DNA of 64,000 bases, taken from IMG/VR virus record IMGVR_UViG_3300048838_000238, positions 41,997 through 105,996 of that record, one strand, 5' to 3'. Below the pieces are notes generated by a model. It saw only the letters and a list, made by a program, of their open reading frames with translations, did no database searches and had not been told where the DNA came from. Positions 7,092-64,000 of the stretch are shown piece by piece. Position 1 is the stretch's first letter. Every line of letters begins with the position of its first letter. Source of the stretch: a virus. Position numbers and translations under genes: made by a program.

Positions 7092-7127
7092 CCGTGCCGC
7101 TCCGTCGATGATTCTGAGTGGTGAAAC

Positions 7128-7146: not shown

Positions 7147-7197
7147 CAAGACGAGGCTCGTGTGCGGCGGCTGGACGTGTCTAACTAGCGGTCCAGA

Positions 7198-7971
7198 TCA
7201 CGGGTAGTTGTACCCCAGCCGGTGCGCTCTGCCATACAGCGAGGAACTGCTGACGTAGTTGTAGGTCCAGGAAATCGGCCAATCGACCCACGCCTGCTTG
7301 CCGTCGCTCGCGACCAGTCTGGGTGTCCCCTCGGTAACGAGCGGCACGGAACTGGCGAGCTTACTGGGCCAGATCGGCGGCGGGATGGGCGGATATCCAT
7401 AGAGCCCGACCGCCGATCCCTGCTGGACGGCGCGTACGGCAGTGTATTGACGAAGAGTCTGTTCGACCGCTGGTCCGGTCAGCACGTCGATCGCGCCCCG
7501 CTGCCTGCCAGCTTCCGGCCATTGCACGGTTTCCTGGAACGATTTGACCAGATTTGCCAGCGACAGCGAGCCCGCTGCGTAGGGTATAGTTGCCTTGGCG
7601 ACGATCTGGCTCTGGCAATTCGTAACCAGCGACGCGCGACCTGGATCCGGAAAGTGCGGCGGCGAGATGATTTGCACCCCAGCTAGGGTATCGACCGTCT
7701 TTAGAGTCAAGTGCGTTTCGGTGCCGTTGGGGTGGCAGAAGATCAGATCGCGACCGCTGACCGAGTAGGCTGCTTGCAGAGCCGCCATTTGTGCTTTGAT
7801 ATCGGCCCGCCGTAACGCTTCGGTTGCCTTATGCGAGATTAGCCAGACCGTGATATTCCACGTTTCTTCTTCGGCCCACGCGGTGCCAGCATCCGTCAGC
7901 AGGGCTTGCCTCTGTGTGGTGACTCGCGTCGTGCCGACCGGGTGCGTGAAATTGCCGTATTTCAGGATCAT
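7198..7971 (-). CDS. Putative distal-tail-like structural protein
   Basis: 257-aa ORF in the tail module; palindrome copy at 7979..7997 directly upstream. Confidence 0.5.
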   Translation of the reverse strand: MILKYGNFTHPVGTTRVTTQRQALLTDAGTAWAEEETWNITVWLISHKATEALRRADIKAQMAALQAAYSVSGRDLIFCHPNGTETHLTLKTVDTLAGVQIISPPHFPDPGRASLVTNCQSQIVAKATIPYAAGSLSLANLVKSFQETVQWPEAGRQRGAIDVLTGPAVEQTLRQYTAVRAVQQGSAVGLYGYPPIPPPIWPSKLASSVPLVTEGTPRLVASDGKQAWVDWPISWTYNYVSSSSLYGRAHRLGYNYP

Positions 7972-8019
7972 GACGCGATTATATCAGATCGCTATAGCCT
8001 GCCGATGGCGCGGAAGCGG

Positions 8020-9750
8020 TCACGCGACGTGTCCAATCCTCAGTAGATTCGACGGCTCGATCCGATTAGACAGCCGAAACACTTCGGCGACGTAAGCCAC
8101 GTCTTCGGGGTCTGGCTGGAGTTCTCGAACAGCCTCTTCAGCCGTGCGAATCCAACCAAGCAGTTTGCCGGCCTGGACGTTGATCGCCAAGATAACTCGC
8201 TTTGCCACGCGGATGTGTAAATTTCCGTTCTGGTATGCCTTGGCGTCCATCAGCGGCTCGCCGTCCTGGAGACATAGTTCGTTTTTCTTGCCAGACGTCC
8301 AGCGGTAGTTAGCTGGGCTGTCCATACAGGCAAACCCGAGATTGTTGGCGACGGTCACGAAGTCCGAAAGGAACTCTATCGACCGCCGCGACAGACCGTT
8401 TACAGCATCGAAGGAATACTGGCTGGTATTGATCCCTCCGAACCCCTCAATAACGAGCCGGTAGTCGATCTTGTATTGAGTCTCGTCTTCGTGGAGGTAT
8501 CGCCAATTTCCCTTGGTGAACACCTTGTCGTTGCTCTTGTAGCGGTGGACGTTGGCGTGTTGCGCGAGTGACTTAAACAGTTCAACGAGCTGGTCGTCAA
8601 AATGATCACTAGCCCACTTGGAAATCCATATCAGCATCGACCGGACATTGCCTTCCGTGAAGTCTACGACAGTTTTGTTTCTGAGCGATTCGAGGAACGC
8701 ATTGCGTTGCTTAGTGGCAAGCCTCTTGGTGATGTCTTCTAAGTGCTCAAACAGGACTTGCCAGTATTTGTTCTTGAGACCGACGATCTTTGACCGCAGG
8801 CCGTCCAGGATGGCTTTTTTCGTGACGCCCAGTTCCTTTAGTAGCAACGGGTTGATTTTGACCACCTTCCGGTAAGTCTCGTACATCTCTGTCAACTCGG
8901 TATCGTAGGCATGGACAAGCGATTCGATGATATTGCCACCCTTAGCGACTTGCCGCAGCCAATCCTTATCCTCTTCGCACTCGTCGTCGATCTTACAATC
9001 GAACTTATCCAGTTCTGGAAGCATCTCTTCAATAGCTGAATTGAATGCCGAGTCTTTGTCGCGGTCTCCCATATCGAAGAGAACGATCTCGACCTTGGCC
9101 CGTGCTCGCCGATCGGCAGTCTCAAAGTCGAACTTGCCCAGCGACTTTGGCTTTAGTTCGAACTGGTCGATCAACTCTTGAATCTTCTGGCTGTCGCGCC
9201 AGCGTCGCGGAATGACCAAGTACACCGACTTGGCGGCGCACTCGCGCAGGATGCGATACGCCCATTCCTCGTACTCGCTGTAGGGCGGATTGCAGAAGAC
9301 GATATCGACCTGTTTGTCGACCAGCGTTTGCTCGTGGAACTCAGTGCCGATCACGACTATATGCTTTGGCATGTTCGCCAAATGGATCATCGATTTTTCA
9401 ACGGCGAACTGATCCAGTGTGATCGTGTTCCGTGAATGCTCGCCCTCGTCACTCAGCATCTCTTGCAGCTTGACCAGCGCCCGGCCGTCGCCAGCCCCGA
9501 TGTCGAGGATATCTAGCGACCCGTGACGACGATAGGCACGATCGGCTTCTCGCCGGATACTCTTGGCGATGACAGCAAGGATCTCATCGGTCGTGGGATA
9601 AAAAGCGTAATCTTCTCCGTTGGCCTTCAGTTCGTCAACTCTGCGACGCGTTGCTGGCCGAGTGAATATCCGCACCGGTTTGCGTGTTGTCCTCAGATTT
9701 ACTGGCGAGGCCAGTTTCGCAGTCGTGCGTGGATGTGGTGTTGCATTCAC
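8020..9750 (-). CDS. Class I SAM-dependent DNA amino-methyltransferase, DUF4942-like
   Basis: FYPT, ILDIGAGDG (motif I) and FCNPPY (motif IV), long helical C-terminus ending KAYQNGNLHI; exact start uncertain. Confidence 0.75.
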   Translation of the reverse strand: MNATPHPRTTAKLASPVNLRTTRKPVRIFTRPATRRRVDELKANGEDYAFYPTTDEILAVIAKSIRREADRAYRRHGSLDILDIGAGDGRALVKLQEMLSDEGEHSRNTITLDQFAVEKSMIHLANMPKHIVVIGTEFHEQTLVDKQVDIVFCNPPYSEYEEWAYRILRECAAKSVYLVIPRRWRDSQKIQELIDQFELKPKSLGKFDFETADRRARAKVEIVLFDMGDRDKDSAFNSAIEEMLPELDKFDCKIDDECEEDKDWLRQVAKGGNIIESLVHAYDTELTEMYETYRKVVKINPLLLKELGVTKKAILDGLRSKIVGLKNKYWQVLFEHLEDITKRLATKQRNAFLESLRNKTVVDFTEGNVRSMLIWISKWASDHFDDQLVELFKSLAQHANVHRYKSNDKVFTKGNWRYLHEDETQYKIDYRLVIEGFGGINTSQYSFDAVNGLSRRSIEFLSDFVTVANNLGFACMDSPANYRWTSGKKNELCLQDGEPLMDAKAYQNGNLHIRVAKRVILAINVQAGKLLGWIRTAEEAVRELQPDPEDVAYVAEVFRLSNRIEPSNLLRIGHVA

Positions 9751-44522: not shown

Positions 44523-46643
44523 CTAACCGAATCTCGGCTTCTCCATCGTGCCCTTGGACCAGTGAAGGCATACGGCGAACGCGGTTCCAAGCGGCAAAGA
44601 GTCGCCGTGTTCCATGATATAGCCGCCCGAACTCCGCTCTTTGATTTCCAGCGAACACAACTCCCCGAACAGATCACGATCGGTGTACAAGTCCATTAGA
44701 TGCTGTCGAGTCTTTGCCAACAGCGTCGTGGCGGACTTGGCGCGGTTGGTATTATCCATCGGGAACGGATAAGTAATCATCCCGACGCTTCTCAGGAGAC
44801 CGGCCAGATCATCGCACTGCGTCGGATCGTACGCGATGCCGAGACACCGGAGCCGCTTGCCGTGCGTCATCACGTGCGCCGCGATCTCGGACACGTCCAC
44901 CCTCTGGGTGTCAGGCGTTCGCTGCCACCGCTGAGCGTGCAATATGACGATACGCTGTCGCTGGTCATCCGTTCCCATCACCACAAACGCGGCGTCGGTC
45001 AAGGTCCGGTTGCAGAAGAGCGCCCCGACTGCGGCGTTGTACGGGTGACGATCTTCAATCCAAGGACCGTCCAGCACGGCCATCGCCTCCAAGTCCGCTG
45101 GTTCGACTCGGATAAACGATTGCCGCATGAGCCGCCGGTACATGCCCGAAGCTGCGTCCACCATATCGTCATGTGTGCCGTTGGGAAATAGCTCGTGCTC
45201 CGCGATGAACTTATCCGTCCACTCGTCCTCGACAACGTACACTTCACCGTTTTCAACGGCGATTGAATACGATTCGGCGCGTTGTGACTTGCTACCGCGT
45301 GGATGCTCGGTATCGAACCGGAGCCCCTTGAGTGCGGGCGTGGTCATGGCGGTTTGATATTTGTTGTCCTCTTCGATAACCGTCTGGACTAGCGCGCCGT
45401 AGTCGCGGTCATCTTCCGAAGATGTACTGGCGATGGAGCTTACGACTCCACGAGGGGACGCCTGTTCGTGCTTAACGTCCACGATGTAGACCTTGCGCCC
45501 GCACCGGCCACCGAGAACGCCAGCCGTTGGGTCGCCGGTGACGGTCTGGGATGTGTCCCAATAACGAACCAGTTCATCGAACGACGCTGGCAGTTCGCTC
45601 CTTGCGATCCTCTCGAACTTGTCGACCTTAAAGAATCCGCCTTCATTCGGCGATGGGCGCTGTTGAAACTGACCGGCCCGGCCGTATTCCCCAAGCGGCT
45701 TGCCGATCCGATTAACGGTGGCTTCGCTCATGTAGTTCGGGTCGATCAACTGCCCTTCTTCGGTGCGAGGATCGAACTGCCGAGAGTACGATATGAACGG
45801 GTGATTCCGCTCGAATCGCATCGGGAAGCACAGGTGGACGTAGCCGTAATCTTCTAATTCGTTGGCGATGATATGCCCGCTCAAGTCATCCTGACCGAGT
45901 CGCTGCATATCGACGACCCGAGACACGTCTCGGGTGGCACCGCGAGTAGGCATTTCGCGAGTCCACCAACTGATAACCTCTTTCAGCTTGGCCTTACTTT
46001 CCAGCCGTTGCGGGTTGTGCGCGTCGTCCACGACGATGCGGTCTGGGTGCTGTCCGGTTGCACCGGTGCCGGATGTTCCAGCACTGCGAAAGCCGCCCCT
46101 TGTCGTGTTGTATAACGTCCGCTGATTCTGGTCGTGCGACAGCGCAAAGCGGTCCCCCCAATGGCCTTGATACCACGCGCTATCCATCAGCGTCCGGCAT
46201 TTCAGGGAATCACGAGTCGACAACTCTTGGTCGTAGGAGAAGAACATCCAACGGGTATCGGCGCGGTCGCGCGGCCCCCACTCCCACATTGGCCAGAACA
46301 CGCAGCACGATAGCGACTTGGTAAATCCCGGCGGGACGTTAATCAGCAGATTCTTGATCTGCCCCAACGACACCGCTTCCAAGTGTTCCGCCACACAGTC
46401 CACGATCCAGGTCCGCTTGAACGGGACTGTCGGTTCCAGGACTTTCCAGCCCTGTGCCATGAATTCGATCAGCCGCGACTCCGCCAACTCCCGATTCGTC
46501 TGGAAGTCCTGCATCTGCTTCAGGACATCCGCCCTCTGCCAGCAAGGCATCTGCTCCAGGAGGAAGGCTGATGCCGAGGCGCTGAGCGAGAAGAGTAACT
46601 CGATTTCGTCGTTGCTCAACGGAGACGTAGTGCTCATGGACAT
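44523..46643 (-). CDS. terL: Terminase large subunit
   Basis: LINVPPGFTKS (Walker A), IVVDDAH (Walker B), QRL coupling motif, RYWD and FPNGTHDDMVDA nuclease motifs; true start may be downstream. Confidence 0.9.
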   Translation of the reverse strand: MSMSTTSPLSNDEIELLFSLSASASAFLLEQMPCWQRADVLKQMQDFQTNRELAESRLIEFMAQGWKVLEPTVPFKRTWIVDCVAEHLEAVSLGQIKNLLINVPPGFTKSLSCCVFWPMWEWGPRDRADTRWMFFSYDQELSTRDSLKCRTLMDSAWYQGHWGDRFALSHDQNQRTLYNTTRGGFRSAGTSGTGATGQHPDRIVVDDAHNPQRLESKAKLKEVISWWTREMPTRGATRDVSRVVDMQRLGQDDLSGHIIANELEDYGYVHLCFPMRFERNHPFISYSRQFDPRTEEGQLIDPNYMSEATVNRIGKPLGEYGRAGQFQQRPSPNEGGFFKVDKFERIARSELPASFDELVRYWDTSQTVTGDPTAGVLGGRCGRKVYIVDVKHEQASPRGVVSSIASTSSEDDRDYGALVQTVIEEDNKYQTAMTTPALKGLRFDTEHPRGSKSQRAESYSIAVENGEVYVVEDEWTDKFIAEHELFPNGTHDDMVDAASGMYRRLMRQSFIRVEPADLEAMAVLDGPWIEDRHPYNAAVGALFCNRTLTDAAFVVMGTDDQRQRIVILHAQRWQRTPDTQRVDVSEIAAHVMTHGKRLRCLGIAYDPTQCDDLAGLLRSVGMITYPFPMDNTNRAKSATTLLAKTRQHLMDLYTDRDLFGELCSLEIKERSSGGYIMEHGDSLPLGTAFAVCLHWSKGTMEKPRFG

Positions 46644-46914
46644 GGTGTACTTCCGCCGGATTCTTGCTCTGCTCTTCCTTCATTTGCAGGCTTTCGCGTT
46701 GGATGTTGTTCCGATCGGCTGCGATCAATACCCGCGCGGCTGCGATCTGGCTGCGCTCCGACTCCCCGGCTACTGCCACATTGGTCATCTTTGCCATGAT
46801 GGCTTGCCGGACCAACGGCGAGATTGGCCAGCCGTTCTTGATGGCGCGCTCGATAAGCTGCATATCGCTGCGGCTGGTCTTGTCGTCCGGCGATGGCGCG
46901 GCCTGATCTGTCAT
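46339..46914 (-). CDS. Putative terminase small subunit
   Basis: Helical protein directly upstream of and overlapping TerL; ATGA-coupled to the ParB-like gene. Confidence 0.55.
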   Translation of the reverse strand: MTDQAAPSPDDKTSRSDMQLIERAIKNGWPISPLVRQAIMAKMTNVAVAGESERSQIAAARVLIAADRNNIQRESLQMKEEQSKNPAEVHHVHEHYVSVEQRRNRVTLLAQRLGISLPPGADALLAEGGCPEADAGLPDESGVGGVAADRIHGTGLESPGTDSPVQADLDRGLCGGTLGSGVVGADQESAD

Positions 46915-47468
46915 GCACCAGCATCCCACGAATGGCCACAATGTGGACAGGTAATTACTTCCGCCGCACCGGCCGCCGGCGTATCTGGCGGCAAGTCTTC
47001 TGGGATATCGAGCACTGCCAGCAGTCCGTTGTCTTCGGCTAGCTGCGTGAGCATTTCCGCTAGAGCGCCGTTACCGGTCTGAACTGATCTCAGCAGTTCA
47101 TCGAGCTTCTGCGCATCGGCTTCCGCCATAGCGGCAAGAGGATCTTTGGTAAGAGTGGCCTTGCGGGCTTCCGCCTCGTCGAAGTCGGTCACGTTGACTT
47201 CGATCTCGCAATCGGGACCGTACTTTGCCAGCAGGTGTTTCTTCCGCAAATGCCCGTCACAGAGCTTGATTCGTCCCGGCTCCGGTTCGAATGTATCGGG
47301 GTACGAATACCAACCTAGCTCATCGATCGCGCCCTCTAAAGCATCTTGCTGAGCTTGCGGATGCGTCCGAAAGTTCCATTCGGCATCCTCGATATCGGCG
47401 ACCCGTACTAGACGGATACCGATGTTCCGTGTCCGCAGTTCCGGCTTGGCTTCCGTGCCTTCTGCCAT
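46911..47468 (-). CDS. ParB/Srx-like domain protein with C-terminal zinc ribbon
   Basis: NFRTHP...LCDGHLR...CPHCGH; position typical before TerS. Confidence 0.7.
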   Translation of the reverse strand: MAEGTEAKPELRTRNIGIRLVRVADIEDAEWNFRTHPQAQQDALEGAIDELGWYSYPDTFEPEPGRIKLCDGHLRKKHLLAKYGPDCEIEVNVTDFDEAEARKATLTKDPLAAMAEADAQKLDELLRSVQTGNGALAEMLTQLAEDNGLLAVLDIPEDLPPDTPAAGAAEVITCPHCGHSWDAGA

Positions 47469-47629
47469 CTATTTCAACCCCCTGACCCCCGGCTGAATCA
47501 CTGATCTTCTCGGGTGCCATCGTCCATGTTTTAATTACTCGGTTCGACCGTTATACAACCCGCGTTACAACTACTTACGGGGCGGTCAGTTGCACCGATT
47601 ATAGCATGGTGATATAGGTCGCGACGGAG

Positions 47630-48391
47630 TTAAACAGCCGAGACTCGCCCCTTACCTGCTTGTGCCAGCAGCCTGTTAATCACGTCTTGGTAGTATTCTT
47701 TTTCCCACTCGGCGCGGCCTCCGCCGGCGCCGTGGGTGTCTCCGATCTCGGCCACCCGCAGTCTTTCTCGTGGCCAACGGCCGCCTCCCAGCATCGCATA
47801 AGCAGGGTGAATAGGCAGGTCGTGGATGGCTAGATATCCGAATACATCGGCCGTGTTCCATCGTCCAATCGGCGAGCAGCCTTTAGGGCTGTTCAGTCCC
47901 CAGCGTAGCATCCGAATCCTCCTGCCGCTTGACTCATCTGCGCGGATACCAAGGATGTGCCGTCCGCTGTATGGCTTCTCGAATCTCCGAATCTCCGCGT
48001 ACCATATCTTGTCGGTGAGTTTATCGACGTCCTGATGAGGAGCGTTGCGATCGATGCCGACGTAGTCGACGTCAACTTCCTGATACAGTTGCCCAGGGAA
48101 TTGGCTGAAGTAGGCATCGCGAACCGCGTCACAATCCGGGTTATGGTTTGTCGGGCGCAAGTGCATTAACGGGACGTGACGTGCCACTTTCCACAACAGA
48201 TGGGCAATGACAACGCTATCTTTGCCCCACGAAATTCCTGCGTAGCAATGGCCGTCGCCGATGAACTCAGTGATCGCGCCGATGGATTGCCGTTCACGAC
48301 CATCAACCTCTCTAAGACGATCGCTTTCGGCGTATTCTTTCCACAATAGTAGGTCGCCCGGACGATGCCGTTCACTCTGTATCAGCATCAA
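47630..48391 (-). CDS. CysH/PAPS-reductase-like PP-loop protein (type IV-B-associated)
   Basis: ISWGKDS, LGIRADES..R, PIGRW...DVFGYL...LPIHPAY; last gene of the csf operon. Confidence 0.8.
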   Translation of the reverse strand: MMLIQSERHRPGDLLLWKEYAESDRLREVDGRERQSIGAITEFIGDGHCYAGISWGKDSVVIAHLLWKVARHVPLMHLRPTNHNPDCDAVRDAYFSQFPGQLYQEVDVDYVGIDRNAPHQDVDKLTDKIWYAEIRRFEKPYSGRHILGIRADESSGRRIRMLRWGLNSPKGCSPIGRWNTADVFGYLAIHDLPIHPAYAMLGGGRWPRERLRVAEIGDTHGAGGGRAEWEKEYYQDVINRLLAQAGKGRVSAV

Positions 48392-48962
48392 TCATTTCCC
48401 ATGCGGTTGAATACTGGACGTTTGCAAACAATGATGCAATGCCGGTAAGTTGCTTGTACCGATGAACGGAATCCAAATCGAGGCCGAGCTTCTCCGCAAC
48501 CTCTTCCTCGCTCATGCCTTGCTGAATTAAGGCACGAACGACGTCGGCATCCAAGTCTACCTGATGAAATCCGCGAGCGTTATTAAATTGAACTGTCGCA
48601 GCCATCCTCTTGGCCATCGTGTGCGGCAAACAAACAACTGGAATGTGCGACATATCCAGCCAGTCAGGTCCAGCAATTAAGTGCCGGTGAAACCCGTCTA
48701 TAATCACGAACTGGTCAGCCTCATCGCTCCAGATCGTGACCACGGGGAAGCAGAATCCGTTTTCAATGATGGACGTCTTTAGCAACTCCATTTTGTCGGG
48801 AGGAACGGAATTGGGGTTGTACGTGTTCGCGACTACCAGTCGCCTATTGACGAGCATGGTTTCAATGCACGGGATCGGGATGTCGATCGCCAGCGATGAC
48901 GACTTAATAGCAACAGACTCACGTCGATACCTTCTATAGTCGTCGGCTGTTTCGATAATCAT
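48372..48962 (-). CDS. ibrB: IbrB-like ParB/Srx protein
   Basis: ANTYNPNSV...SIIENGF...IIDGFHR...TVQFNNARG plus C-terminal HTH; ATGA-coupled to ibrA. Confidence 0.75.
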   Translation of the reverse strand: MIIETADDYRRYRRESVAIKSSSLAIDIPIPCIETMLVNRRLVVANTYNPNSVPPDKMELLKTSIIENGFCFPVVTIWSDEADQFVIIDGFHRHLIAGPDWLDMSHIPVVCLPHTMAKRMAATVQFNNARGFHQVDLDADVVRALIQQGMSEEEVAEKLGLDLDSVHRYKQLTGIASLFANVQYSTAWEMIDADTE

Positions 48963-50083
48963 AGGACGCTCCGGTAGTAGGCGAGCAACTGATCTCTCGG
49001 ATCTTCCGCGTTGTCGACTGGGAGGTTGTTCTCGTAATCGTTCAGAAGAAGTTGTCGGCACTGCTGACGCGCCACGTACTCGTTATTGCGATGCTTAGAG
49101 AATCGCGACCTAAAGACATTGACCGCCATTGAGTCTTGGTGAGTTGCCAACAGAAAGTCGCGGTAGACCATCCATGAGGTGTAACCCTTTGGCAGCTTCC
49201 GTGCGGCGAACATCTTGCTGTTCTTCCCGGTCTCTTGAGCGAACGACACGCCATTCACTCTTTTGAGAAGCTTGGCGTATGTCTTCGGTTCAAACTCCGG
49301 CAGTTCGCAGATACTCTTGAACGACCGCTCGTGAATAAGCGAAGAGCAACGAATCTCGGTGATGCTCATGCCCTTTTTGAACTGCATGTCGTATATTTTT
49401 GAGTACAGAAGTCCTTCGTCGTGGATGAACTTCCACACGTCATGGAAGTTCCAATCGTAGATCGGATAGACGGATGCCGAGTTGCGGTTCTTTTTGGTCG
49501 CGTAGTAGATGCGTTCGCCGTGTCTCTCGACAGGGTTCTTGCTCACTGCCCGGTAACGGTTTGGACCCTCAGTCGCGCGCAGTCCGACCAGAAACGCGGT
49601 ATCAGTAAAACAACTCTCAAAGTTGTCGATCACGTCATAGAACCCGAACCCCTTACGTTTATCTCGGACGGTCGGATTGCGACCCCACATCGGCGAGACA
49701 ATATTCCCATTGCCTTTCGGTCGCATCCAAATTTTATGTTTGCCTTCCTCCCAGCACTTGAGCTGTGTTTCGGATTGCGACGTGGCGTTCGTTAAATGAA
49801 ACTCGACTTGCAGCCACAGTCGATTCGTCCACTCGGGTGATAAGTTCATCAGCCATTCAACTTGGTCGATCGTCGACTGATAAACCACCTCTTCGTCCAG
49901 AAAAAACAGACCGACTTTCTGTTGTCGACGCTCCGCCTCTTGGACGGCCAGATAGGCAAGAACCGTGCTGTCCTTGCCGCCGCTAATGGAAACAATGACG
50001 TTTTCAAATAGATCAAACGTCTTGGCGATCCTCCGCCGCGCCGCTTCAACCACGGATTCGTCAAGATATTTTTGCGTAAGCAT
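48959..50083 (-). CDS. ibrA: IbrA-like PAPS-reductase/DUF3440 family protein
   Basis: SISGGKDS, FLDEE, VGLRATE..NR, YPIYDW...DVW, LLNDY. Confidence 0.75.
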   Translation of the reverse strand: MLTQKYLDESVVEAARRRIAKTFDLFENVIVSISGGKDSTVLAYLAVQEAERRQQKVGLFFLDEEVVYQSTIDQVEWLMNLSPEWTNRLWLQVEFHLTNATSQSETQLKCWEEGKHKIWMRPKGNGNIVSPMWGRNPTVRDKRKGFGFYDVIDNFESCFTDTAFLVGLRATEGPNRYRAVSKNPVERHGERIYYATKKNRNSASVYPIYDWNFHDVWKFIHDEGLLYSKIYDMQFKKGMSITEIRCSSLIHERSFKSICELPEFEPKTYAKLLKRVNGVSFAQETGKNSKMFAARKLPKGYTSWMVYRDFLLATHQDSMAVNVFRSRFSKHRNNEYVARQQCRQLLLNDYENNLPVDNAEDPRDQLLAYYRSVL

Positions 50084-50906
50084 CGGCTACCCGCAGACTC
50101 CAATCGCACGTTCTCTGGATGTACCAATGATCCACCTTCAATTCAGTGGTAAGAAACGGAATCCGTGCCTGTCCCGTCAAACTAAGGAAGTCGATCAGGT
50201 CAATATAGTTGTGGCACATCTCAAAGACGGTTCGTTCTCCTGCGATGGAGTCGTCTTTGAATGTGACAAGATATGGTAGCTTCATCCGGTTATTGCGCCC
50301 CACGAGCTGTCGATCCCCGGCCACGGCAGCCTTGTCAGCTCCGCCGATAAGATGCAAGTTACGCGGGATCGTGTGCGGGTCTTTAAGGCCGATGCCGTCA
50401 AACAATTGCTGCCGCTGCTTCTTATACTCCGCTATCGTCTTACTTGATACGGCAACACGTTCTTCAATGAAGACCGGGTGCCTATCGATGACACGGACAT
50501 CAACGTGCGACTTGAACTCGTCCGACCATCCACATCCCTTGAACCGGCTATTGGTGTCAAAGTCCATCAGAATCATCAGGTCGTTAATTGAGTCGATGAT
50601 CGGCAGCCACTGGAATACCAACTGATGACGAGTTTGTGACAGGAAGTGGCGAATGCAATTGTAAGTCAAGTCGCTTCGGTTCTGAGTTCTCAGACACTCG
50701 TTGACGACGACCAGAGTGTTTGAATCGATCTCTCTAAGCAACCGGTAGAATACCTTGTACTTGATGATCTGATGCCAATCGACAAACTCACAGCCATCCA
50801 GTTCAAACCAAAACTTACTTGGCGACAGCACGACCACTTTGCGGCCTTCTGCGTGTTCTCGCACGATCTCAGCCTTATCGGAATTGTGAACGCCAAGATA
50901 GATCAT
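50061..50906 (-). CDS. Hypothetical protein, possibly a degenerate helicase-like fold
   Basis: 281 aa, coupled to both neighbours; LVVVNEC resembles a degenerate DExx motif. Confidence 0.6.
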   Translation of the reverse strand: MIYLGVHNSDKAEIVREHAEGRKVVVLSPSKFWFELDGCEFVDWHQIIKYKVFYRLLREIDSNTLVVVNECLRTQNRSDLTYNCIRHFLSQTRHQLVFQWLPIIDSINDLMILMDFDTNSRFKGCGWSDEFKSHVDVRVIDRHPVFIEERVAVSSKTIAEYKKQRQQLFDGIGLKDPHTIPRNLHLIGGADKAAVAGDRQLVGRNNRMKLPYLVTFKDDSIAGERTVFEMCHNYIDLIDFLSLTGQARIPFLTTELKVDHWYIQRTCDWSLRVADAYAKIS

Positions 50907-51496
50907 TGAATCGCCTTCAACCGCTTCGCACATTCCAATGATCGCTTCTCATTCAACTCGATAGCTGCAACTCGCATCCCGACGTCCATGAACTTCTTGA
51001 GCATCTTTCCCTTGCCAGCGCAAACATCAGCCACTGTCCGACAGCCCTGCCGAAGGAACCATCCAGATAATGCCGTCGTTGCGTCGCGGCTATCCTTCAG
51101 TTGCGGTGCGATCGATGGATCGCCTTGCCTTGAAGCAACGATCTGATAGTTGTTTCCGGCGTAGTAGTTGGTTTGCCATCCGACTTGGCTTCCATATCCA
51201 ACGTCATACAAAGCGTTCATCCAATGGCGAGACTCAGGAACGCCGGTCTTCAGGTAAACCCATGCTGGATTAGAGCGTTCGACAACGCCAATCAGTTCTT
51301 CGCAGAACCGCGACCAGTCTTGCTCAACTCCAGATTTACGACTCCAGTACGTCAGATTCCCTTGCCTCCAAGGAGGATCGATGGCAAGTAGATCGGCATT
51401 CAGACTCGTGCCGTAAAAACTGCCGCAGTAGACCTCGGATCGATCACTTCTGCCAGTAAACCGAGTCCCACTTGGTTCTCTCAGCAATGACATCAT
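50903..51496 (-). CDS. Small amino-methyltransferase-like protein
   Basis: IDPPW (motif IV) before VADVCAGKG...AIEL (motif I), beta-class order; start uncertain. Confidence 0.65.
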   Translation of the reverse strand: MMSLLREPSGTRFTGRSDRSEVYCGSFYGTSLNADLLAIDPPWRQGNLTYWSRKSGVEQDWSRFCEELIGVVERSNPAWVYLKTGVPESRHWMNALYDVGYGSQVGWQTNYYAGNNYQIVASRQGDPSIAPQLKDSRDATTALSGWFLRQGCRTVADVCAGKGKMLKKFMDVGMRVAAIELNEKRSLECAKRLKAIQ

Positions 51497-51869
51497 TTGG
51501 GATTGAGTAGACAAGGTGCGTCGTCCCCATCTTGAACTTTTTGAGGTGAACAAAACCAAGGGATTCAAATAGCGATGGTCGGAATGCAAAAGTATCTAGC
51601 TTCTTGGCGGACGTGTTTTGGCAACCGTACGCAAACCGGTGCTCAACAAGCAGCTTACCGAGCCCCTGGCAGCGAAACTCTGGTGCCACCCAGCATCCGC
51701 ACAAGCGTACCGCGATGCTGTTTAGCTTTCGAAGGCAACCGATAGCAGGCTTTCCGTCGACAACAAAGATGATGTCTCGTTGCCGGATCGATACGCGATC
51801 GCGTTTTGCTTTCGCGACCAAGCCGCTTGCGACTGCAAGATCAAATGGTATCTGAAGAACCTTCAACAT
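51444..51869 (-). CDS. GNAT family acetyltransferase
   Basis: WVAPEFRCQGLG acetyl-CoA motif, FESLGF. Confidence 0.8.
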   Translation of the reverse strand: MLKVLQIPFDLAVASGLVAKAKRDRVSIRQRDIIFVVDGKPAIGCLRKLNSIAVRLCGCWVAPEFRCQGLGKLLVEHRFAYGCQNTSAKKLDTFAFRPSLFESLGFVHLKKFKMGTTHLVYSIPNDVIAERTKWDSVYWQK

Positions 51870-52537
51870 GGAACTACGATCTCTCGGAAGCGATCCGGGT
51901 GCCACCTCGGCGGCTGGCAGGCTCCGAACCACCGCTTGAATCCGGTCAAGTCAGGCGGCAATTTGTCACACCACGGCAAGGCACGCATAAGCAGTGTCCC
52001 GGCCTCGCATGGCGCGAACCAACTCCAGTCGTGTTCGACTTCCACGGCAGTCCATTCACTCACCCGACCAAATCCTTGAGAGCGTTTATGGCCGATGGAA
52101 TGGACCGAGTCAAGCAGGGACAACAGCGTCCGTCGCTCCGAGCCCCCGACGAACCACACCACGCGATCACAGTCTCTTAGTCGCAACGGCAAGCGATAGC
52201 TCTTGTACGTGGCATTTCCGACTGCTACACACAGTCTCTTGTCTGGCGACAAGACGTCGGCATATTCGACAGCCAGCCGCTTGGCGAATCTTTCCACCCG
52301 ATCCCTGGCGGGCGACAGGATCGGCGCCGAACATCGCGGGATATTATTCACTCCGCCTATCGCGCCTCGCAAGCACGGAATATGAATCTCTCCCGGCGGC
52401 GGTGCCGGTGCGCTCCGAACAATGCGGCTTGCCAAGCCTAGCCGCTGGCTCATCTCGTACTCCAGAAGTGAATCTAGGTACGGGGCGTCGCCAGCCAGCG
52501 GGCTCGACAGGCAGGCCGTGACTTTCCAGTTAGCCAT
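51863..52537 (-). CDS. csf3: Type IV CRISPR Cas5-like RAMP
   Basis: LSSPL...YLDSLL, YKSYRLPL, G-rich loop IGHKRSQGFGRV, PPRWHP. Confidence 0.8.
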   Translation of the reverse strand: MANWKVTACLSSPLAGDAPYLDSLLEYEMSQRLGLASRIVRSAPAPPPGEIHIPCLRGAIGGVNNIPRCSAPILSPARDRVERFAKRLAVEYADVLSPDKRLCVAVGNATYKSYRLPLRLRDCDRVVWFVGGSERRTLLSLLDSVHSIGHKRSQGFGRVSEWTAVEVEHDWSWFAPCEAGTLLMRALPWCDKLPPDLTGFKRWFGACQPPRWHPDRFREIVVPC

Positions 52538-53423
52538 TAGATGCCGCCTTGCTCGTTTTGCGTCCGCGCGGCGACACCGTGACGAACGCCTCGTTTAGCC
52601 ATTGAACGCACTCGTCACGATTGGCGTCGACGTGCGACACGTAATCCAGCAACAGCGAATCGTCACCGTCATCCATGTTCACGAACGACATCCTCAGTCT
52701 GCCATGCCCTATCCGTGATTGCCCTCCGATCGTTCCCCCTGAATCCTGCCACAACCGCAGAGACAATCGCAGGCAGCCCAACTCCAGTTCATTGACGTGC
52801 TTCAATACGAAGCCGTGATGAAACACCGCCCCTCGACCAACGGCTTGGCCGGAGTAGATCATCAGACTGGAGGTGTCTCCGTCTTGCGTCTCAGCTTGTC
52901 CCAACTTCGCAGCGTCACCACGGGTGTACTGATATCCGCTCGCGAACCGCTCGGCTGACCAGAGTCTTGCCGTCGGAAAGTCCGCGATCATACTGGCTAA
53001 CGACTCGCGGTTCTCTTCACACACTAGTACCCCGCGCCACACGTCCATCGATCCGGCAAGTATCTGGTTCGGCAGCGATCCTCCGCACAATCGCAGCAAC
53101 GGAAATAATCGATGGCAATCGGCGATGCGACGGGTATTCTCTTGCGCCGTCGATTGTGTGAGGTTCCCACCGTGCAACAGGAAGTTCAGTTGCGGAAGCG
53201 ACAGTTTGCCTCGCAACCCCAGGCGATCAATCAGCCACATCGCGCCGGGCTCACGAACGAACCGGTGACGGATTGCGTTGCCGCTCAGGAACGGGACGTA
53301 AGCCACGCCACAAGGAGTCGTCACCGGTTCGCGGGCTACAATCGCCTCGTTACCAGCCGTCCCGCTGGCGTGCGTAATGGGCGAGATGGCTTTCGATAGG
53401 CAGTGAATCGTGTACGTTTTCAA
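52530..53423 (-). CDS. csf2: Type IV CRISPR Cas7-like backbone RAMP
   Basis: SPITH, VPFLSGNAIRH, LLHGGNL, FPLLRLCGG, IGGQSRIGHG. Confidence 0.85.
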   Translation of the reverse strand: MKTYTIHCLSKAISPITHASGTAGNEAIVAREPVTTPCGVAYVPFLSGNAIRHRFVREPGAMWLIDRLGLRGKLSLPQLNFLLHGGNLTQSTAQENTRRIADCHRLFPLLRLCGGSLPNQILAGSMDVWRGVLVCEENRESLASMIADFPTARLWSAERFASGYQYTRGDAAKLGQAETQDGDTSSLMIYSGQAVGRGAVFHHGFVLKHVNELELGCLRLSLRLWQDSGGTIGGQSRIGHGRLRMSFVNMDDGDDSLLLDYVSHVDANRDECVQWLNEAFVTVSPRGRKTSKAASNG

Positions 53424-53875
53424 GCGGCACCTCCGATCTTGTCTTTCCAGCGGCGACGAGCCAACACCAAAACGGGAATGAGATGTGTCGTCAGATACTT
53501 CAGCCAGTCGGCGCGTGACTCTGCCGGTAGGTCGTAAAGCGATTGCAAAGCGTTAACGAAGTCGTCATCCGCGACCGCCTTGGCTGGCTCTGCTTTGATA
53601 TGCTCGCAGACGTGCTGTACGAACAGATCCAAATCGCCGTCGATTGTCTTCGCATAGGCCGACTGGATCGCGGTGGCGATGCGGTCCCAGAGCGTGAGAC
53701 GGTCCAGGTCAGACCCAAAGATTCTCGGCAGCGACGCGCAGAAATCGACGGCCAATTCCTTGGCGACGCTGACAAACCATTCCGGCTTGTCGGCGTCATA
53801 GTCGATCAGCCCGGCTAATTCTTGTCGCAGTCTCTCGGTATCAAGAGTCGGCAGTGGCGGTGGCAGGGTAGTCAT
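53420..53875 (-). CDS. cas11: Cas11-like small helical subunit
   Basis: 151-aa all-alpha protein directly upstream of csf2, as in type IV-B gene order. Confidence 0.6.
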   Translation of the reverse strand: MTTLPPPLPTLDTERLRQELAGLIDYDADKPEWFVSVAKELAVDFCASLPRIFGSDLDRLTLWDRIATAIQSAYAKTIDGDLDLFVQHVCEHIKAEPAKAVADDDFVNALQSLYDLPAESRADWLKYLTTHLIPVLVLARRRWKDKIGGAA

Positions 53876-54720
53876 CGTATTTTCTTTCCTGGTTGTATTG
53901 GTAATGTTGCGGCCAATTCCGGATCAATCCCTTTCCTTATCCGAGACGTCAACGTAGCTTTCCGAACGACACACAAGGGATGGCGAGACAATTCCGTAAC
54001 GGTAATCGTCTCGCCAAATGCGTCTACAACGCAATTTATGTCTGCCCTCCCAACAGGAACTGATGCCGCCTTTTCGATATCCCACCCATTGCAAATTCTG
54101 TAGGCAAGAGTTTTGTAGGACACCTCGCATCTGCTGTCTCTGCTTAATTCTGCTAAAGTCATTCCGATTCCAAATGCGATAATTGGTAGATTTCGGCTAG
54201 TGTTATTTGCCTGTTGTGACTTTGTTGCCCATCGGCAGTTGCAAGGTTCGTAGTTACCGTCATTGTCCTTGCGATCTATTTCGTGCTTTGGGGGTCTCTT
54301 CCCCATGTCGGCAAGAAAGTTACTGAACCCGTCTATTCCAGTCCATCGCTCGCAAACTGTAATCCCTCTTCCGCCGTAATGGCGATATGCGTCATGCGAC
54401 GGCCTGTAGCATCTTGCCTTCATGTTCATCCACACAATCCATTCTGGAGAATTGGTTTGCCCATGAGACGTGTTGCGTTTCCTAGTTGTCTCACTTCCGG
54501 CACACCCACAGCTTTTAGAGTTACCGCTTTTAAGGTTGTATCCATCGACGACAGTTAATGACCCACACAAGCACTCGCACAGCCACTTACATTTTGACTG
54601 TGCGTCCCGGCCATGAAAGTTCTTCACAGTCAGCCTGCCGAACTTCGTTCCGCATAAATCATTTTTTGGCTGTCGGTATTGGTTCGGTGACGGTGTCGCG
54701 GTATTGTCTAAAGCAGACAT
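53872..54720 (-). CDS. HNH-type homing endonuclease inside the cas operon
   Basis: FGRLTV...WLCECLCG...SCGC...YGGRGITVCERW...IDRKDNDGNYEPCNCRWAT; AT-rich, own AAGGAG RBS. Confidence 0.85.
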   Translation of the reverse strand: MSALDNTATPSPNQYRQPKNDLCGTKFGRLTVKNFHGRDAQSKCKWLCECLCGSLTVVDGYNLKSGNSKSCGCAGSETTRKRNTSHGQTNSPEWIVWMNMKARCYRPSHDAYRHYGGRGITVCERWTGIDGFSNFLADMGKRPPKHEIDRKDNDGNYEPCNCRWATKSQQANNTSRNLPIIAFGIGMTLAELSRDSRCEVSYKTLAYRICNGWDIEKAASVPVGRADINCVVDAFGETITVTELSRHPLCVVRKATLTSRIRKGIDPELAATLPIQPGKKIR

Positions 54721-54748
54721 GACATTGCTCCTTGTTAGCGTGTCGTGT

Positions 54749-55480
54749 TTAGAAGAGCGTTGGCCGGAATCCAACGCTCTTCGCATTTTCTCCTATCGTC
54801 TGTGGATACACAAGAAGGCACTCGCTTCGAGGCGGGCAGAGCCACAGACTAAGACGACTAAGTGGTTCGGTGGCCACGGCGAGCCACGCCGATAGCCATT
54901 GGTCAGAATCGTAATGTTCGACAACGCGGATTTGCTGCATGAATGACAGTCCAGCGTCCAACGCCGGCTTTCCGGTCACTGCCGCGATCCGCTGGCATAA
55001 GTCAACTCGGTCGCGAAGTCCCGGTAGACCGTAATCGATCCGTTCACCTTCAAGAGTAACGGTCGGATGCTTCTGATCGTGACACACGACTGCGCGGTAG
55101 AGTAGATGCTTCTGTCCGCTGTCGCTGATACAAATCACAAACGGAGGTGGTGGCGGATACAGGCATACGCTCAGTAGCCAATCGCGATGAGACTTCGTCG
55201 CCGCGATCCGCTTTCCATTAGCCACTACCCACGAGTAACAGCGGACCTTCTGCCCATCTCGCGACGTCCCGTCGTGAAACTGAACGCTAGTCGATTCAGC
55301 CTGACTGGCAACGCATCCTCGACATACGTGAGCCGCTTGCGTCACGGTATCGAGCCCTGTAAACGAACTCTTAACGAAGTCTCGCGACAGCGTTTCACCG
55401 TCACACTGGCCGCCGCAAAAGAAGCAGCGGCAGTTGCCGGTTTCAAAATGGCCGTTCCAGAGTTGTGGTGCGGTTTGCAT
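54749..55480 (-). CDS. csf1: Type IV CRISPR large subunit
   Basis: CFFC...CRGC zinc motif and PPPPFVICISDSGQKHLLY signature; TAATG coupling. Confidence 0.75.
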   Translation of the reverse strand: MQTAPQLWNGHFETGNCRCFFCGGQCDGETLSRDFVKSSFTGLDTVTQAAHVCRGCVASQAESTSVQFHDGTSRDGQKVRCYSWVVANGKRIAATKSHRDWLLSVCLYPPPPPFVICISDSGQKHLLYRAVVCHDQKHPTVTLEGERIDYGLPGLRDRVDLCQRIAAVTGKPALDAGLSFMQQIRVVEHYDSDQWLSAWLAVATEPLSRLSLWLCPPRSECLLVYPQTIGENAKSVGFRPTLF

Positions 55481-56055
55481 TAATTGCTCGGCATATCGCA
55501 TTCGTGACGTGGCTTGACGCAACCATCCTCAAGATCAACACACCAGCCGTCCGGGACTCCGCCGTTCTTTACGGTCGATTCGTCTCGCTTCGACTTCTCG
55601 ATGAAGCGGCGGATTCCACCAACCGTCTGATAGACCATGCGTCCGGTCGACCGCCCATAGTTACCACGCTCTTCGCGTGCTTCGTATCGCTTCACCCATT
55701 TGCAATCGGATTCAGCGGCCCAGAAGTCAATCGAGCAATCCAGAACGGTCAGCCACAGCTTGCCGGTCTTATCCGACCGTCCAATGACGTAGTAGGTGCG
55801 ACCCTTATACTCGACTTTGCCAGTGCATTGTCGATCGGCCAGTTCCTTCTTGTCGGGCTCGATGGTCTTGCCGTCCATGCCTCCGACGAGTGATTCGATC
55901 TGGCTGGCCTTGGCCGCGCCGATCCACCATTGCTTGCGGTCGCCATCCCAGTGACAACCGGCTGACTTGAGTTGCGACTTAATGGGGAACGTATTCCCCA
56001 CGACATAGATGCGGGCTCCGACCTTTTCCGTTCCGATGGACATGACGGCTGACAT
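55480..56055 (-). CDS. Hypothetical protein, first gene of the cas operon
   Basis: GNTFPIKSQLKSAGCHWDGDRKQWW N-terminal motif; AGGAG RBS; palindrome at 56088..56106 upstream. Confidence 0.65.
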   Translation of the reverse strand: MSAVMSIGTEKVGARIYVVGNTFPIKSQLKSAGCHWDGDRKQWWIGAAKASQIESLVGGMDGKTIEPDKKELADRQCTGKVEYKGRTYYVIGRSDKTGKLWLTVLDCSIDFWAAESDCKWVKRYEAREERGNYGRSTGRMVYQTVGGIRRFIEKSKRDESTVKNGGVPDGWCVDLEDGCVKPRHECDMPSN

Positions 56056-56087
56056 TGAATTAGCTCCTGATTGCGAGTTGATTTGAC

Positions 56088-56138
56088 CTACATCACACTG
56101 ATATATGTAATTCGCTGGCCAGTCAGGATATTGGCCAA
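56088..56138 (-). promoter_or_regulatory. Promoter-like motif plus palindrome heading the cas/ibr operon
   Basis: TTGGCC-N17-GCGAAT on the minus strand, followed by the palindrome CTACATC-N5-GATATAT. Confidence 0.5.
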
Positions 56139-56165
56139 CCGCTGAAAAGAATCTGGAAAAAGCCG

Positions 56166-58815: not shown

Positions 58816-59928
58816 CTATTCGCCGCGCGAGCGCTGTTCTTGCATCAGTTCGCGGTATCTCTCGATCACTTGCTTCGCCGATGTGAACTTCACAGGAATG
58901 CCGACGGCGGTCCCCACTTCTTGTCTCATCGCGGCGATACTGCGAGCCTCATCTAAAGTCAAGATGCAGGTCGGCCAGCCTTTCGTGTACAGCAAGTGCT
59001 TCGGAAGCCACCGCTCCGCGTTCTCGCGAATCACCTGGACGCACTTGGCGCGATCTAGTCCAGAATGTTGCTCGTTGGTCAGGAGGTTCGGCGCTACATC
59101 CCCCAGCCACTTCGCTTGAAAGGCAAACGAAGAGTCGATTTCCAACTGAACCATCTGGCGGTACAACTCGTGGTTGTCCGGACAAGTGGAAGCCGCCAGA
59201 AGATCCGGCCGCGCCGACAAGATGCAGTAGCAGCAAGACACTCGCGATGCGCCGTACGTCACGTAGGCTTCGTGTAACGGGAACTCGCGATTAGCGTGCA
59301 AGGCGATAACATCGTCAAGAGTCCACTCGATGATCGGGTGCCAGTTGAATCCGTTCGTGTCGTCGCTCCTGCGGTACAGCAGAGACTGCGGGCTCGACAC
59401 TGGCTTCTTGGCGCGGCCGGGGCTTTCCTGGCGGCGGATACCAACGGCGTTGATAATCGTCTGACCGCCGAACCGTTTTTTAAGATAGCTACAGATCACG
59501 GCTGTCTTCAACTCGCTGGTGCAAAACCTCATCGAGGGCGTGCTCCAAGGCAGGATCAGCTTGACGCACTCCAGGTTTCCATATCGCCGGACGTTGTTGT
59601 CCCAGCGAGTCAACCAGCGGTCGAGCATATCGCCAGCCTTGCGACGAACCACGACCAGTTCCAGCCCGAGCCTGTCAGCCAGCTTTTCACATTGCGGCAA
59701 GCTGGCCTTCCACTCAGTTCTGCCGAGGTCACTGTGAATCAATATCCGCTCACCACGATGGCCGACAGTGTCTAAGTGATCGATCGTCGCGAACGCCAGT
59801 GCATCGCTGTCCTTGCCTCCTGACACTCCGATGGCAACCGGGGCATGGTCCGCGACCGCCTTATCAATCTCTGGCGTCGTAGCGACGCCTGGCTCGCAGC
59901 CAGCCGTGAATAGTTTTGCTTGCTTCAC
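58816..59928 (-). CDS. PAPS-reductase family PP-loop protein with putative Fe-S cysteines
   Basis: VSGGKDS, RFCTSELK, GIRRQES..R, SRVSCCYC. Confidence 0.85.
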   Translation of the reverse strand: MKQAKLFTAGCEPGVATTPEIDKAVADHAPVAIGVSGGKDSDALAFATIDHLDTVGHRGERILIHSDLGRTEWKASLPQCEKLADRLGLELVVVRRKAGDMLDRWLTRWDNNVRRYGNLECVKLILPWSTPSMRFCTSELKTAVICSYLKKRFGGQTIINAVGIRRQESPGRAKKPVSSPQSLLYRRSDDTNGFNWHPIIEWTLDDVIALHANREFPLHEAYVTYGASRVSCCYCILSARPDLLAASTCPDNHELYRQMVQLEIDSSFAFQAKWLGDVAPNLLTNEQHSGLDRAKCVQVIRENAERWLPKHLLYTKGWPTCILTLDEARSIAAMRQEVGTAVGIPVKFTSAKQVIERYRELMQEQRSRGE

Positions 59929-63511: not shown

Positions 63512-64000
63512 TTAGGTGAACTCGCCAACAATCTGTCCGTTCTGAATCTTGCGAGTCGCTTCAATTTCTCCAACGAATACGCGATGCTGAACTACGTCGT
63601 CAACTATCCAATGGGCGAGCAAGACAGCGCCGGGATGCTCAACCCAGGTGAATCTCGTCGCGGTCGATACACCAGCCGACTTTGGTCCGAGTTCGATTGT
63701 GCTGTATTCACCCGTCGTCAACGCGGCACCTCCGTAGCCCGAGTTGGACGCGGCACCTCTGTAGCCCGAGTTGGACGCGGCACCGCTGTAGCCCGAGTTG
63801 GACGCGGCACCGCTGGAGCCCGAGTTGGACGCGGCACCTCCGTAGCCCGAGTTGGACGCGGCACCTCCGTAGCCCGAGTTGGACGCGGCACCTCTGTAGC
63901 CCGAGTTGGACGCGGCACCGCTGTAGCCCGAGTTGGACGCGGCACCTCTGTAGCCCGAGTTGGACGCGGCACCGCTGTAGCCCGAGTTGGACGCGGCACC
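63512..64000 (-). CDS. Gly/Ala/Ser repeat protein (GAASNSGYx)n, partial
   Basis: The repeat reads GAASNSGY[S/R/G] in frame with the 63512..63721 ORF. Confidence 0.7.
   Translation of the reverse strand, partial: GAASNSGYSGAASNSGYRGAASNSGYSGAASNSGYRGAASNSGYGGAASNSGYGGAASNSGSSGAASNSGYSGAASNSGYRGAASNSGYGGAALTTGEYSTIELGPKSAGVSTATRFTWVEHPGAVLLAHWIVDDVVQHRVFVGEIEATRKIQNGQIVGEFT
63722..64000. repeat. 27-bp coding tandem repeat, about 10 copies
   Basis: Unit GGACGCGGCACC(T/G)C(T/C)GTAGCCCGAGTT with no spacers. Confidence 0.95.

Follow-up and report, generated by a model that had tools for sequence, protein, structure and literature searches.

A phage-borne type IV-B CRISPR-Cas operon joined to an IbrA/IbrB, methylase, and mini-SNF2 cassette whose partner elsewhere is either Csf with CysH or a SNF2 helicase

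This report concerns an operon in a 64,000-nucleotide stretch of viral DNA (IMG/VR record IMGVR_UViG_3300048838_000238, positions 41,997 to 105,996), hereafter called the window and numbered from its own first letter. The operon combines two sets of genes, namely an array-less type IV-B CRISPR-Cas effector with its CysH-like partner, and a cassette of a small methylase, a degenerate SNF2-like core, and an IbrA/IbrB pair that recurs in many phage contigs. In these relatives the cassette is joined either to Csf and CysH or to a full-length SNF2 helicase and, one locus aside, not to both. For that reason the Csf ribonucleoprotein (RNP) together with CysH most likely takes the place of the DNA translocase in engaging nucleic acid, and we consider it probable, albeit by no means secure, that the Csf/CysH and cassette modules cooperate.

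Twelve minus-strand open reading frames (ORFs) make up the operon, running from 56055 down to 47630. All of them are present in the order given by the initial annotation, which had been made from the letters alone, and they are listed here in that order with their lengths in amino acids (aa) and their model matches.

55480..56055, minus strand: o1, 191 aa, no family; its stop overlaps the csf1 start (TAATG)
54749..55480, minus strand: csf1, type IV large subunit (Cas8-like), 243 aa; PADLOC PDLC01574 typeIV_Cas8, 5.4e-57
53872..54786, minus strand: free-standing homing-type HNH endonuclease; phrog_374, 1.1e-61
53420..53875, minus strand: cas11, type IV small subunit, 151 aa; PADLOC typeIV_Cas11, 2.4e-30; ATGA overlap with the HNH stop
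52530..53423, minus strand: csf2, Cas7 backbone, 297 aa; PADLOC typeIV_Cas7, 2.3e-80; phrog_22746, 1e-67
51863..52537, minus strand: csf3, Cas5, 224 aa; PADLOC typeIV_Cas5, 4.1e-26; phrog_34599
51444..51869, minus strand: GNAT acetyltransferase, ~141 aa; Pfam Acetyltransf_7, 3.3e-7 (31 bits against a cut-off of 27)
50903..51496, minus strand: o8, predicted minimal beta-class DNA amino-methyltransferase core; motif IV DPPW, motif I D-x-C-x-G-x-G
50061..50906, minus strand: o9, predicted degenerate mini-SNF2 two-lobe ATPase core (from fold and motifs), 281 aa
48959..50083, minus strand: ibrA-type PP-loop enzyme, 374 aa; SGGKDS motif; phrog_2302, 1.1e-77
48372..48962, minus strand: ibrB-type ParB/Srx-like protein, 196 aa; DGFHR motif; phrog_2159 (ParB-like), 3.9e-43
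47630..48388, minus strand: cysH-like gene (CasCysH), 252 aa; PP-loop SWGKDS; Pfam PAPS_reduct, 4.7e-11

Gene starts were refined by picking stop-touching codons, which yields the 281-aa o9. The proposed coupling by overlapping stop and start codons is seen at most junctions, which offer coupled starts (TAATG, ATGA, TTGA, or overlaps of 7-53 nt with the preceding stop). Among these are the ATGA of the adjacent ibrA and ibrB and the TTG start of csf2, which overlaps the cas11 stop.

Judged by its gene content, the operon belongs to subtype IV-B, as it carries csf1, csf2, csf3, cas11, and a cysH-like gene and has no array. The expected match of its ORFs to repeat-associated mysterious protein (RAMP)/Csf families is borne out by the PADLOC type IV models (4e-26 to 2e-80), and Csf1 carries the CxxC...CxxC cysteines of a zinc finger. 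The NCBIfam csf equivalogs TIGR03114/5/6 reach 44, 30, and 20 bits, all far below the curated cut-offs of 130-140 (Csf1 against TIGR03114 gives 2.3e-11, likewise under its cut-off), and the Csf proteins of the window therefore appear to form a divergent branch. We found no repeat-spacer array in the window or in the whole 105,996-bp genome. Cas1, Cas2, Cas6 (Cas_Cas6_C), and DEAD_2/DinG have no match in the complete genome either, within a model set that left RecD and other Cas6 models unsearched. The initial annotation had reported this absence for the window, and it extends to the rest of the genome, with no cognate array and cas6 elsewhere. An Rfam scan of the window returned no family, and there are no direct repeats local to the operon.

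The cassette was followed through o9. Alignment-based scans returned 26 IMG/VR loci and 80 metagenome loci (75 of them non-duplicate), whereas single-sequence IMG/VR scans with o9 or CysH returned nothing. Wherever enough downstream sequence is available, ibrA and ibrB come after o9, with the small methylase on either side. Read from these arrangements, the conserved unit is one of four genes (methylase, mini-SNF2, ibrA, and ibrB), a widespread unnamed phage module. These loci were retrieved regardless of Cas genes, and csf genes lie on the same contig in 10 of the 26 IMG/VR loci and in 26 of the 75 non-duplicate metagenome loci.

The linkage spans Csf2 lineages so divergent that phmmer gives E-values of only 1e-9 to 1e-16 against the Csf2 of the window, and PADLOC confirms the divergent Csf2 of two such loci, L033 and L038, as type IV Cas7. 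At least 20 gene orders occur: cysH can precede or follow the cassette, the csf genes are convergent in L037, and in L038 and L034 the cassette sits between csf2-cysH and csf3. L038, a low-GC (guanine-cytosine) phage, holds what we would call the whole gene set of the window in rearranged form, as csf1, a cas11-csf2 fusion, cysH, o9, ibrA, ibrB, a 101-aa ORF, GNAT, methylase, a 175-aa ORF, and csf3. On the Csf2 tree, the cassette needs at least four gains or losses. The anticipated co-occurrence is thus found for the ibr and methyltransferase genes, which accompany csf in many phage contigs of divergent clades, and only occasionally for GNAT. Two further arrangements may be recorded here. The L038 fusion (7931-9232) is a protein of 433 aa in which the Cas11 model covers residues 65-165 and Cas7 models cover 209-429, and L044/L054 (one IMG/VR contig family, with a SNF2-type cassette) carries two successive ibrA-ibrB pairs after o9 at ~4049-7243, the second more divergent.

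The alternative partner of the cassette was missed by a regular expression for GxGK[ST] and DExH and was found by all-versus-all clustering of the neighborhood ORFs, in which one family occurs in 15 of 16 csf-negative loci and in none of 16 csf-positive ones. In L047 this protein is a SNF2 helicase of ~675 aa that ends at the o9 start (Pfam SNF2-rel_dom and Helicase_C). Its motifs are canonical (MGTGK, VDES.YIK, LTGTP, and QAEDR..RIGQ), and it lies directly upstream of o9 wherever its position was examined. Once duplicates are removed and at least 2.5 kb of upstream sequence is required, 25 o9 loci have csf only, 21 have SNF2 only, one has both, and seven have neither (Fisher p = 4e-8, which overstates independence because the loci are related). 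The switch counts from trees are safer in this respect: parsimony on the IbrA tree calls for at least seven switches of partner, and well-supported branches force at least three. The single locus with both partners has a weak, distant match 8 kb off, at the locus edge. In the window's complete genome, which has the cassette and Csf, no SNF2 protein scores above the cut-off.

CysH sorts with the Csf side and not with the cassette, since a cysH-type gene is present in 31 of 36 csf-positive cassette loci and in none of 29 SNF2-positive loci; the five csf-positive exceptions are short contigs of 1.3-6 kb. The CasCysH of the window has no cysteine in the C-terminal stretch read, where CysH has its catalytic Cys, in agreement with what has been published on CasCysH (PMC8175902). 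On the CysH tree, the window forms a clade with two relatives, L005 and L019 (100% support), a grouping that the Csf2 alignment rejects (approximately unbiased test, p = 4e-5), and the IbrA of L019 is distant from that of the window on the IbrA tree although their CysH proteins are close. These three taxa hint that, within the Csf clade of the window, one CysH lineage tracks the presence of the cassette irrespective of Csf2 or IbrA ancestry, in the manner of co-adaptation. Import of cysH together with the cassette was considered and rejected, as the GC content of cysH is genome-like and the L019 IbrA is not close to the window's. Co-folding of CysH with IbrA and IbrB gave a score of 0.00, which speaks neither for nor against binding. 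A third PP-loop gene of the PAPS-reductase family lies 2.8 kb upstream of the operon (58816-59928, minus strand, 370 aa, with GVSGGKDS and a CCYC cysteine cluster); beyond the shared domain, its sequence is unrelated to IbrA or CasCysH.

The ancestry of the operon can be read from the relatives of Csf2, a protein with more than 500 homologous clusters, nearly all of them unnamed metagenomic proteins. Our Csf2 set consists of 26 IMG/VR loci and four contigs from metagenome-assembled genomes (three Planctomycetota and one labeled Micavibrio), and the canonical order csf1-cas11-csf2-csf3-cysH is found in ~22 of these 30. The cysH of the window is a homolog of the gene right after csf3 in those ~22 relatives; here it stands five genes downstream of csf3, and an insertion at this place is common only to the window, L005, and L019. 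No other 3-kb stretch of the genome is as low in GC content as the five-gene cassette (50.9%, against 56.7 +/- 1.9%), the HNH gene has 48.2% GC, and the csf genes and cysH are genome-like. Given the AT-rich HNH gene and cassette on the one side and the canonical order of the relatives on the other, the window's locus is best described as a canonical phage IV-B operon with two insertions.

The HNH gene is absent at csf1/cas11 in all 30 relatives; the two neighbors are directly adjacent in most of these loci, and L022 has a gap of ~1.5 kb there. By its composition and distribution, it is a window-specific, AT-rich selfish insertion and not a part of the system, and the initial reading of the operon content as one system stands for csf, cysH, and the cassette only. 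A perfect hairpin with a 12-bp stem (54752-54782) coincides exactly with the junction of csf1 stop and HNH start and may be tied to the HNH insertion or to translational control. GNAT adjoins the cassette in L037, L038, L050, and L057, a distribution that marks it as an occasional add-on rather than a core component. For o1, the best result is a weak Pfam match to DUF5710 (17 bits, below the cut-off); phmmer found no homolog in the ORF sets of loci L001-L057, and a protein-atlas search gave no usable lead.

Cultured relatives are scarce. None of 50,697 phage records matched the operon in a Megablast search, tblastn of CysH and of o9 against cultured phages was likewise negative, and tblastn of Csf2 found Skermania phage SPI1 only (L031, KR011061). 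In SPI1, Csf1, Cas11, Csf2, and Csf3 correspond to orf40-43 (4840-8473; PADLOC 2e-28 to 1e-66), and orf44 (239 aa) occupies the cysH position, with no PADLOC match; in the annotation, all five appear as hypothetical proteins. Type IV-B of phages could be studied in the laboratory with this cultured actinobacterial phage as a model.

Within the cassette, o9 was listed initially as a 281-aa unknown. Its length holds, and its model (predicted local distance difference test, pLDDT, 85) together with its motifs points to a degenerate SNF2-like ATPase core. The closest structure is CSB (Z 16.7, 280/290 residues aligned; VIA), followed by SWR1, INO80, and SNF2h, and Foldseek gives an E-value of 7e-9 to INO80/ISWI. 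The family keeps SNF2-like motifs II (NECLRTQN, compare DEAHRIKN), III (QYLP), and VI (GRNNR), its Walker A is G14-x5-K20 with no conserved S/T, and the Walker B Asp is replaced by Asn in 21 of 24 sequences. Since neither the Walker A consensus GxGK[ST] nor the Walker B consensus DExH is present, we take o9 to be SNF2-derived by its model and do not count it as a member of the SNF2 family. It has no Pfam or NCBIfam match, and none of its more than 540 homologous clusters is named.

The methylase o8 has no Pfam match at E <= 0.01 either. Its family profile matches beta-class N6-adenine DNA methyltransferases in the PDB (3e-7), and in the family alignment DPPW and D-x-C-x-G-x-G are invariant or nearly so, motif IV preceding motif I. 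The o8 model (pLDDT 78) resembles M.MboIIA (Z 16.3) and M.BceJIV (Z 16.1), with M1.HpyAVI and CcrM also at Z 15-16. Because only the conserved catalytic core of ~160 aa is matched (166-174 residues align to enzymes of 228-250 aa), the comparison suggests that o8 has no target-recognition domain (TRD), which would fit targeting by partner proteins.

IbrA combines PAPS_reduct (2.1e-13, 51.1 bits) with a C-terminal DUF3440 (8.1e-9, 35.9 bits), both above the Pfam cut-offs. It is strongly conserved (mean column identity 73% in the alignment), and its invariant or near-invariant columns include no cysteine, so that an iron-sulfur cluster is unlikely. IbrB has a C-terminal helix-turn-helix (HTH, a weak HTH_23 match) and reaches TIGR00180 at 6.8e-5, below the cut-off; ParBc is not among its Pfam matches at E <= 0.01.

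The genome itself is a single contig of 105,996 bp, of which the window is the final 64 kb, and in IMG/VR it is filed as viral, with direct terminal repeats and a completeness estimated at 100%. Around the operon, the following features delimit the unit and set its context.

56056..56165, minus strand: intergenic stretch ahead of the operon; holds an operator-like palindrome (56088-56106) and the o1 ribosome-binding site (AGGAG)
47599..47617, no strand: next operator-like palindrome of the same family, at which the packaging unit that follows begins
46911..47468, minus strand: ParB-like gene; phrog_620, 4.5e-10
44523..46643, minus strand: large terminase TerL; phrog_38, 1.3e-64; Terminase_6C

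The two palindromes that were said to flank the operon are indeed two of 14 copies of CTATATC-N5-GATATAG (up to two mismatches) in the window, where 0.05 would be expected by chance. Further sites include 7128 and 30601, no copy lies within the operon, and the set looks like genome-wide operators. A promoter-like GCGAATTA box lies just 5' of the palindrome at 56088-56106, and a consensus scan found no excess of sigma-70-like promoters or terminators inside the operon. Since palindromes bound the operon, none is internal, and there is no such excess, a single transcription unit is the most economical reading. The block abuts DNA-packaging genes, as had been pointed out, with the ParB-like gene and terL directly downstream. 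This ParB-like protein has a C-terminal CxxC, may be a small-terminase-like packaging factor, and has a homolog 3' of the IV-B locus in L004 and L005 as well.

Away from the operon, both contig ends (genome bases 1-190 and window 63721-64000) carry a 27-bp tandem repeat (~10 copies, 96% matches), which probably codes for repeats of 9 aa in a structural protein. The assembly of the genome, which is circularly permuted or has terminal repeats, broke at this repeat. Another tandem repeat, of 192 bp (2.8 copies, 72% matches), lies at 5149-5687.

How could these parts work together? We propose that a phage IV-B effector operon took in a selfish HNH gene and a widespread accessory cassette, here with GNAT. 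The cassette would supply an adenylating PP-loop enzyme, a ParB/Srx-HTH protein, a TRD-less methylase, and a degenerate SNF2 core, and the fifth component would be either a live SNF2 translocase of double-stranded DNA or Csf plus CysH. Engaging nucleic acid in place of the translocase, the Csf RNP with CysH would hold the adenylating, ATP-using enzymes and the methylase in place on a substrate that is probably DNA. Their action may be timed around packaging, which fits because the operon is directly upstream of the ParB-like gene and terL. The simplest model is a machine for the modification of nucleic acid (probably DNA) that engages it by translocation or by a Csf RNP, a model suggested by the fact that the same superfamilies build Dnd, BREX type 4, and Dpd. 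In short, the Csf family matches, the recurrent linkage of csf to ibr and methyltransferase genes, and the lack of an array or cas6 favor one functional unit over adaptive immunity, as the initial annotation had it; the RNP-directed modification or anti-defense function that it added may be correct and goes beyond what comparative genomics supports.

Several points weigh against this proposal, in addition to the relatedness of the loci mentioned above. The cassette is present in only three of the ~30 loci of the window's own Csf2 clade, and sampling is biased, the divergent csf-positive loci having been found via o9. The relatives were annotated from stop-to-stop ORFs with hidden Markov models built in-house from few sequences, and many contigs are short. 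Furthermore, the ATPase motifs of o9 are degenerate, so that it may be no motor, and the L019 IbrA is far from that of the window, so that CysH and the cassette are not simply co-inherited. Finally, the data fit a DNA or an RNA substrate, and self-marking or an attack on host or rival elements, alike.

The plainest alternative is coincidence, in which type IV-B and the IbrAB cassette would be independent tenants of the same permissive slot near the packaging genes. It gains from the existence of IV-B loci without the cassette and of cassettes without csf, from the position of both modules just upstream of terL in some loci (L007, L019, L041, and L053), and from the compositionally distinct, recent-looking insertion that the cassette forms in the window. 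However, the placement relative to terL varies (L048 and L103), and the linkage holds over divergent Csf clades and many gene orders, with the modules interleaved in L034 and L038. A shared hot spot does not predict that csf and the cassette-adjacent SNF2 gene exclude one another either, and the CysH subtype tracks the presence of the cassette against the Csf2 phylogeny. We therefore regard mere neighborhood as unlikely.

The same coupled system could also act on RNA, with the PP-loop enzymes adenylating, thiolating, or in some other way modifying Csf-bound transcripts, tRNA, or rRNA so as to take over the host or control translation. Most characterized nucleic-acid PP-loop enzymes (TilS, ThiI, MnmA, and TtcA) act on tRNA, and some systems have GNATs that acetylate bases of tRNA and rRNA. 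IbrA itself weakly matches the TilS, ThiI, and TtuA models, and Csf filaments bind RNA (PMC7937560). Nevertheless, the methylase fold is nearest to DNA N6-adenine/N4-cytosine enzymes, IbrB is ParB-like with an HTH, the alternative partner is a SNF2-type translocase of double-stranded DNA, and PAPS-reductase-like and ParB-like proteins are employed by the DNA-modifying Dnd, BREX type 4, and Dpd systems (PMC8175902, PMC12839542). An RNA substrate accordingly strikes us as rather improbable.

Least convincing, and in our estimate quite improbable, is that Csf loads CRISPR RNAs (crRNAs) of the host or of co-resident elements, for interference with rivals or as an anti-CRISPR sponge, beside an unrelated anti-restriction DNA-modification cassette: both ideas have been raised for type IV-B (PMC7038947) and would suit a complete effector with no array of its own on a phage, but the solved IV-B complex held heterogeneous non-CRISPR RNA and not the co-expressed crRNA (PMC7937560, PMC8175902), no Cas6 match was found in the genome for guide processing, and the alternation of Csf plus CysH with SNF2 at the cassette would be left unexplained.

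Returning to cooperation between the Csf/CysH and cassette modules, a bolder version can be sketched, to which we assign only a small chance. The guide-less Csf filament would load the phage's own transcripts and, by virtue of their complementarity, direct CasCysH, IbrA, IbrB, and the TRD-less methylase specifically to the phage genome, which would be self-marked by hypermodification and so protected before packaging; in sister phages, a SNF2 translocase would carry the same enzymes along DNA instead. Transcript-derived guidance is conceivable, if speculative, because heterogeneous cellular RNA, and not crRNA, is what the solved IV-B complex holds (PMC7937560). If true, type IV-B would be a targeting module of CRISPR origin that serves the epigenetic modification of DNA and not interference.

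These considerations matter since type IV-B is the one widespread CRISPR-Cas subtype without a clear function, whose invariant partner CysH is unexplained; its function and complete effector architecture were still called unclear in 2026 (PMC13676074). The subtype is known from plasmids, prophages, some lytic phages, and an archaeal virus (PMC7038947, PMC10848311), and a phage-borne type IV-B locus is as such nothing new. Shmakov et al. list an N6-methyltransferase and an ADP-ribosyltransferase among IV-B neighbors (bioRxiv 270033). We found no literature linking IV-B to IbrA/IbrB or ParB, or describing a SNF2 alternative, in a search that covered subscription journals only in small part. The recurrent wiring of Csf and CysH to IbrA, IbrB, a methylase, and a SNF2 core offers type IV-B a concrete genetic context. 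It names candidate partner proteins and a chemistry, and it ties the subtype to IbrAB, a very common uncharacterized phage module. Interchangeability with a SNF2 translocase would moreover predict a role for Csf, namely to deliver or position enzymes on nucleic acid.

Compared with known subtype IV-B loci, such as that of the Mycobacterium sp. JS623 plasmid (PMC7937560, PMC8175902, and PMC7038947), the operon has the same four effector genes and a cysH-like gene. Array, Cas6, adaptation module, and DinG are likewise lacking, the locus is borne by a mobile element, and CysH has a PP-loop and no C-terminal Cys in the stretch read. It differs in its residence in a complete, apparently 106-kb tailed-phage genome, in the five accessory genes that part csf3 from cysH, in the HNH gene that splits csf1 from cas11, and in falling short of the NCBIfam csf equivalog cut-offs.

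With IV-A (CasDinG) and IV-D (RecD), whose type IV effectors rely on a helicase, the operon shares a Csf complex that is genetically tied to an ATPase of the superfamily 2 type, here the SNF2-like o9, and in the cassette lineage the Csf complex is interchangeable with a full SNF2 helicase. On the other hand, o9 is a 281-aa degenerate SNF2 core rather than DinG or RecD, and there is no array or Cas6. The relation to helicases would differ too, in that a SNF2 partner seems to have been replaced and not a helicase recruited.

The E. coli IbrA/IbrB and the phage phrog_2302/phrog_2159 pairs resemble the pair described here in having a PAPS_reduct plus DUF3440 protein followed by a translationally coupled ParB-like one. 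To our knowledge, IbrAB has no known function beyond a regulatory phenotype in E. coli. In contrast to the E. coli pair, the present one always travels with a mini-SNF2 and a minimal methylase and is joined to Csf/CysH or to SNF2.

Lastly, the DNA-modification defense systems Dnd (DndB/DndC), BREX type 4 (BrxP), and Dpd (DpdB) bring together a PP-loop ATP pyrophosphatase, a ParB/Srx-like protein, an ATPase of the SNF2 or another type, and sometimes a methyltransferase, as does the operon. Unlike in those systems, no cysteine desulfurase or tRNA-guanine transglycosylase was seen in or beside it, the matches to the DndC and BrxP models are weak, and the genes are phage-borne and coupled to a Cas RNP. 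The shared set of superfamilies supports the analogy with DNA modification.

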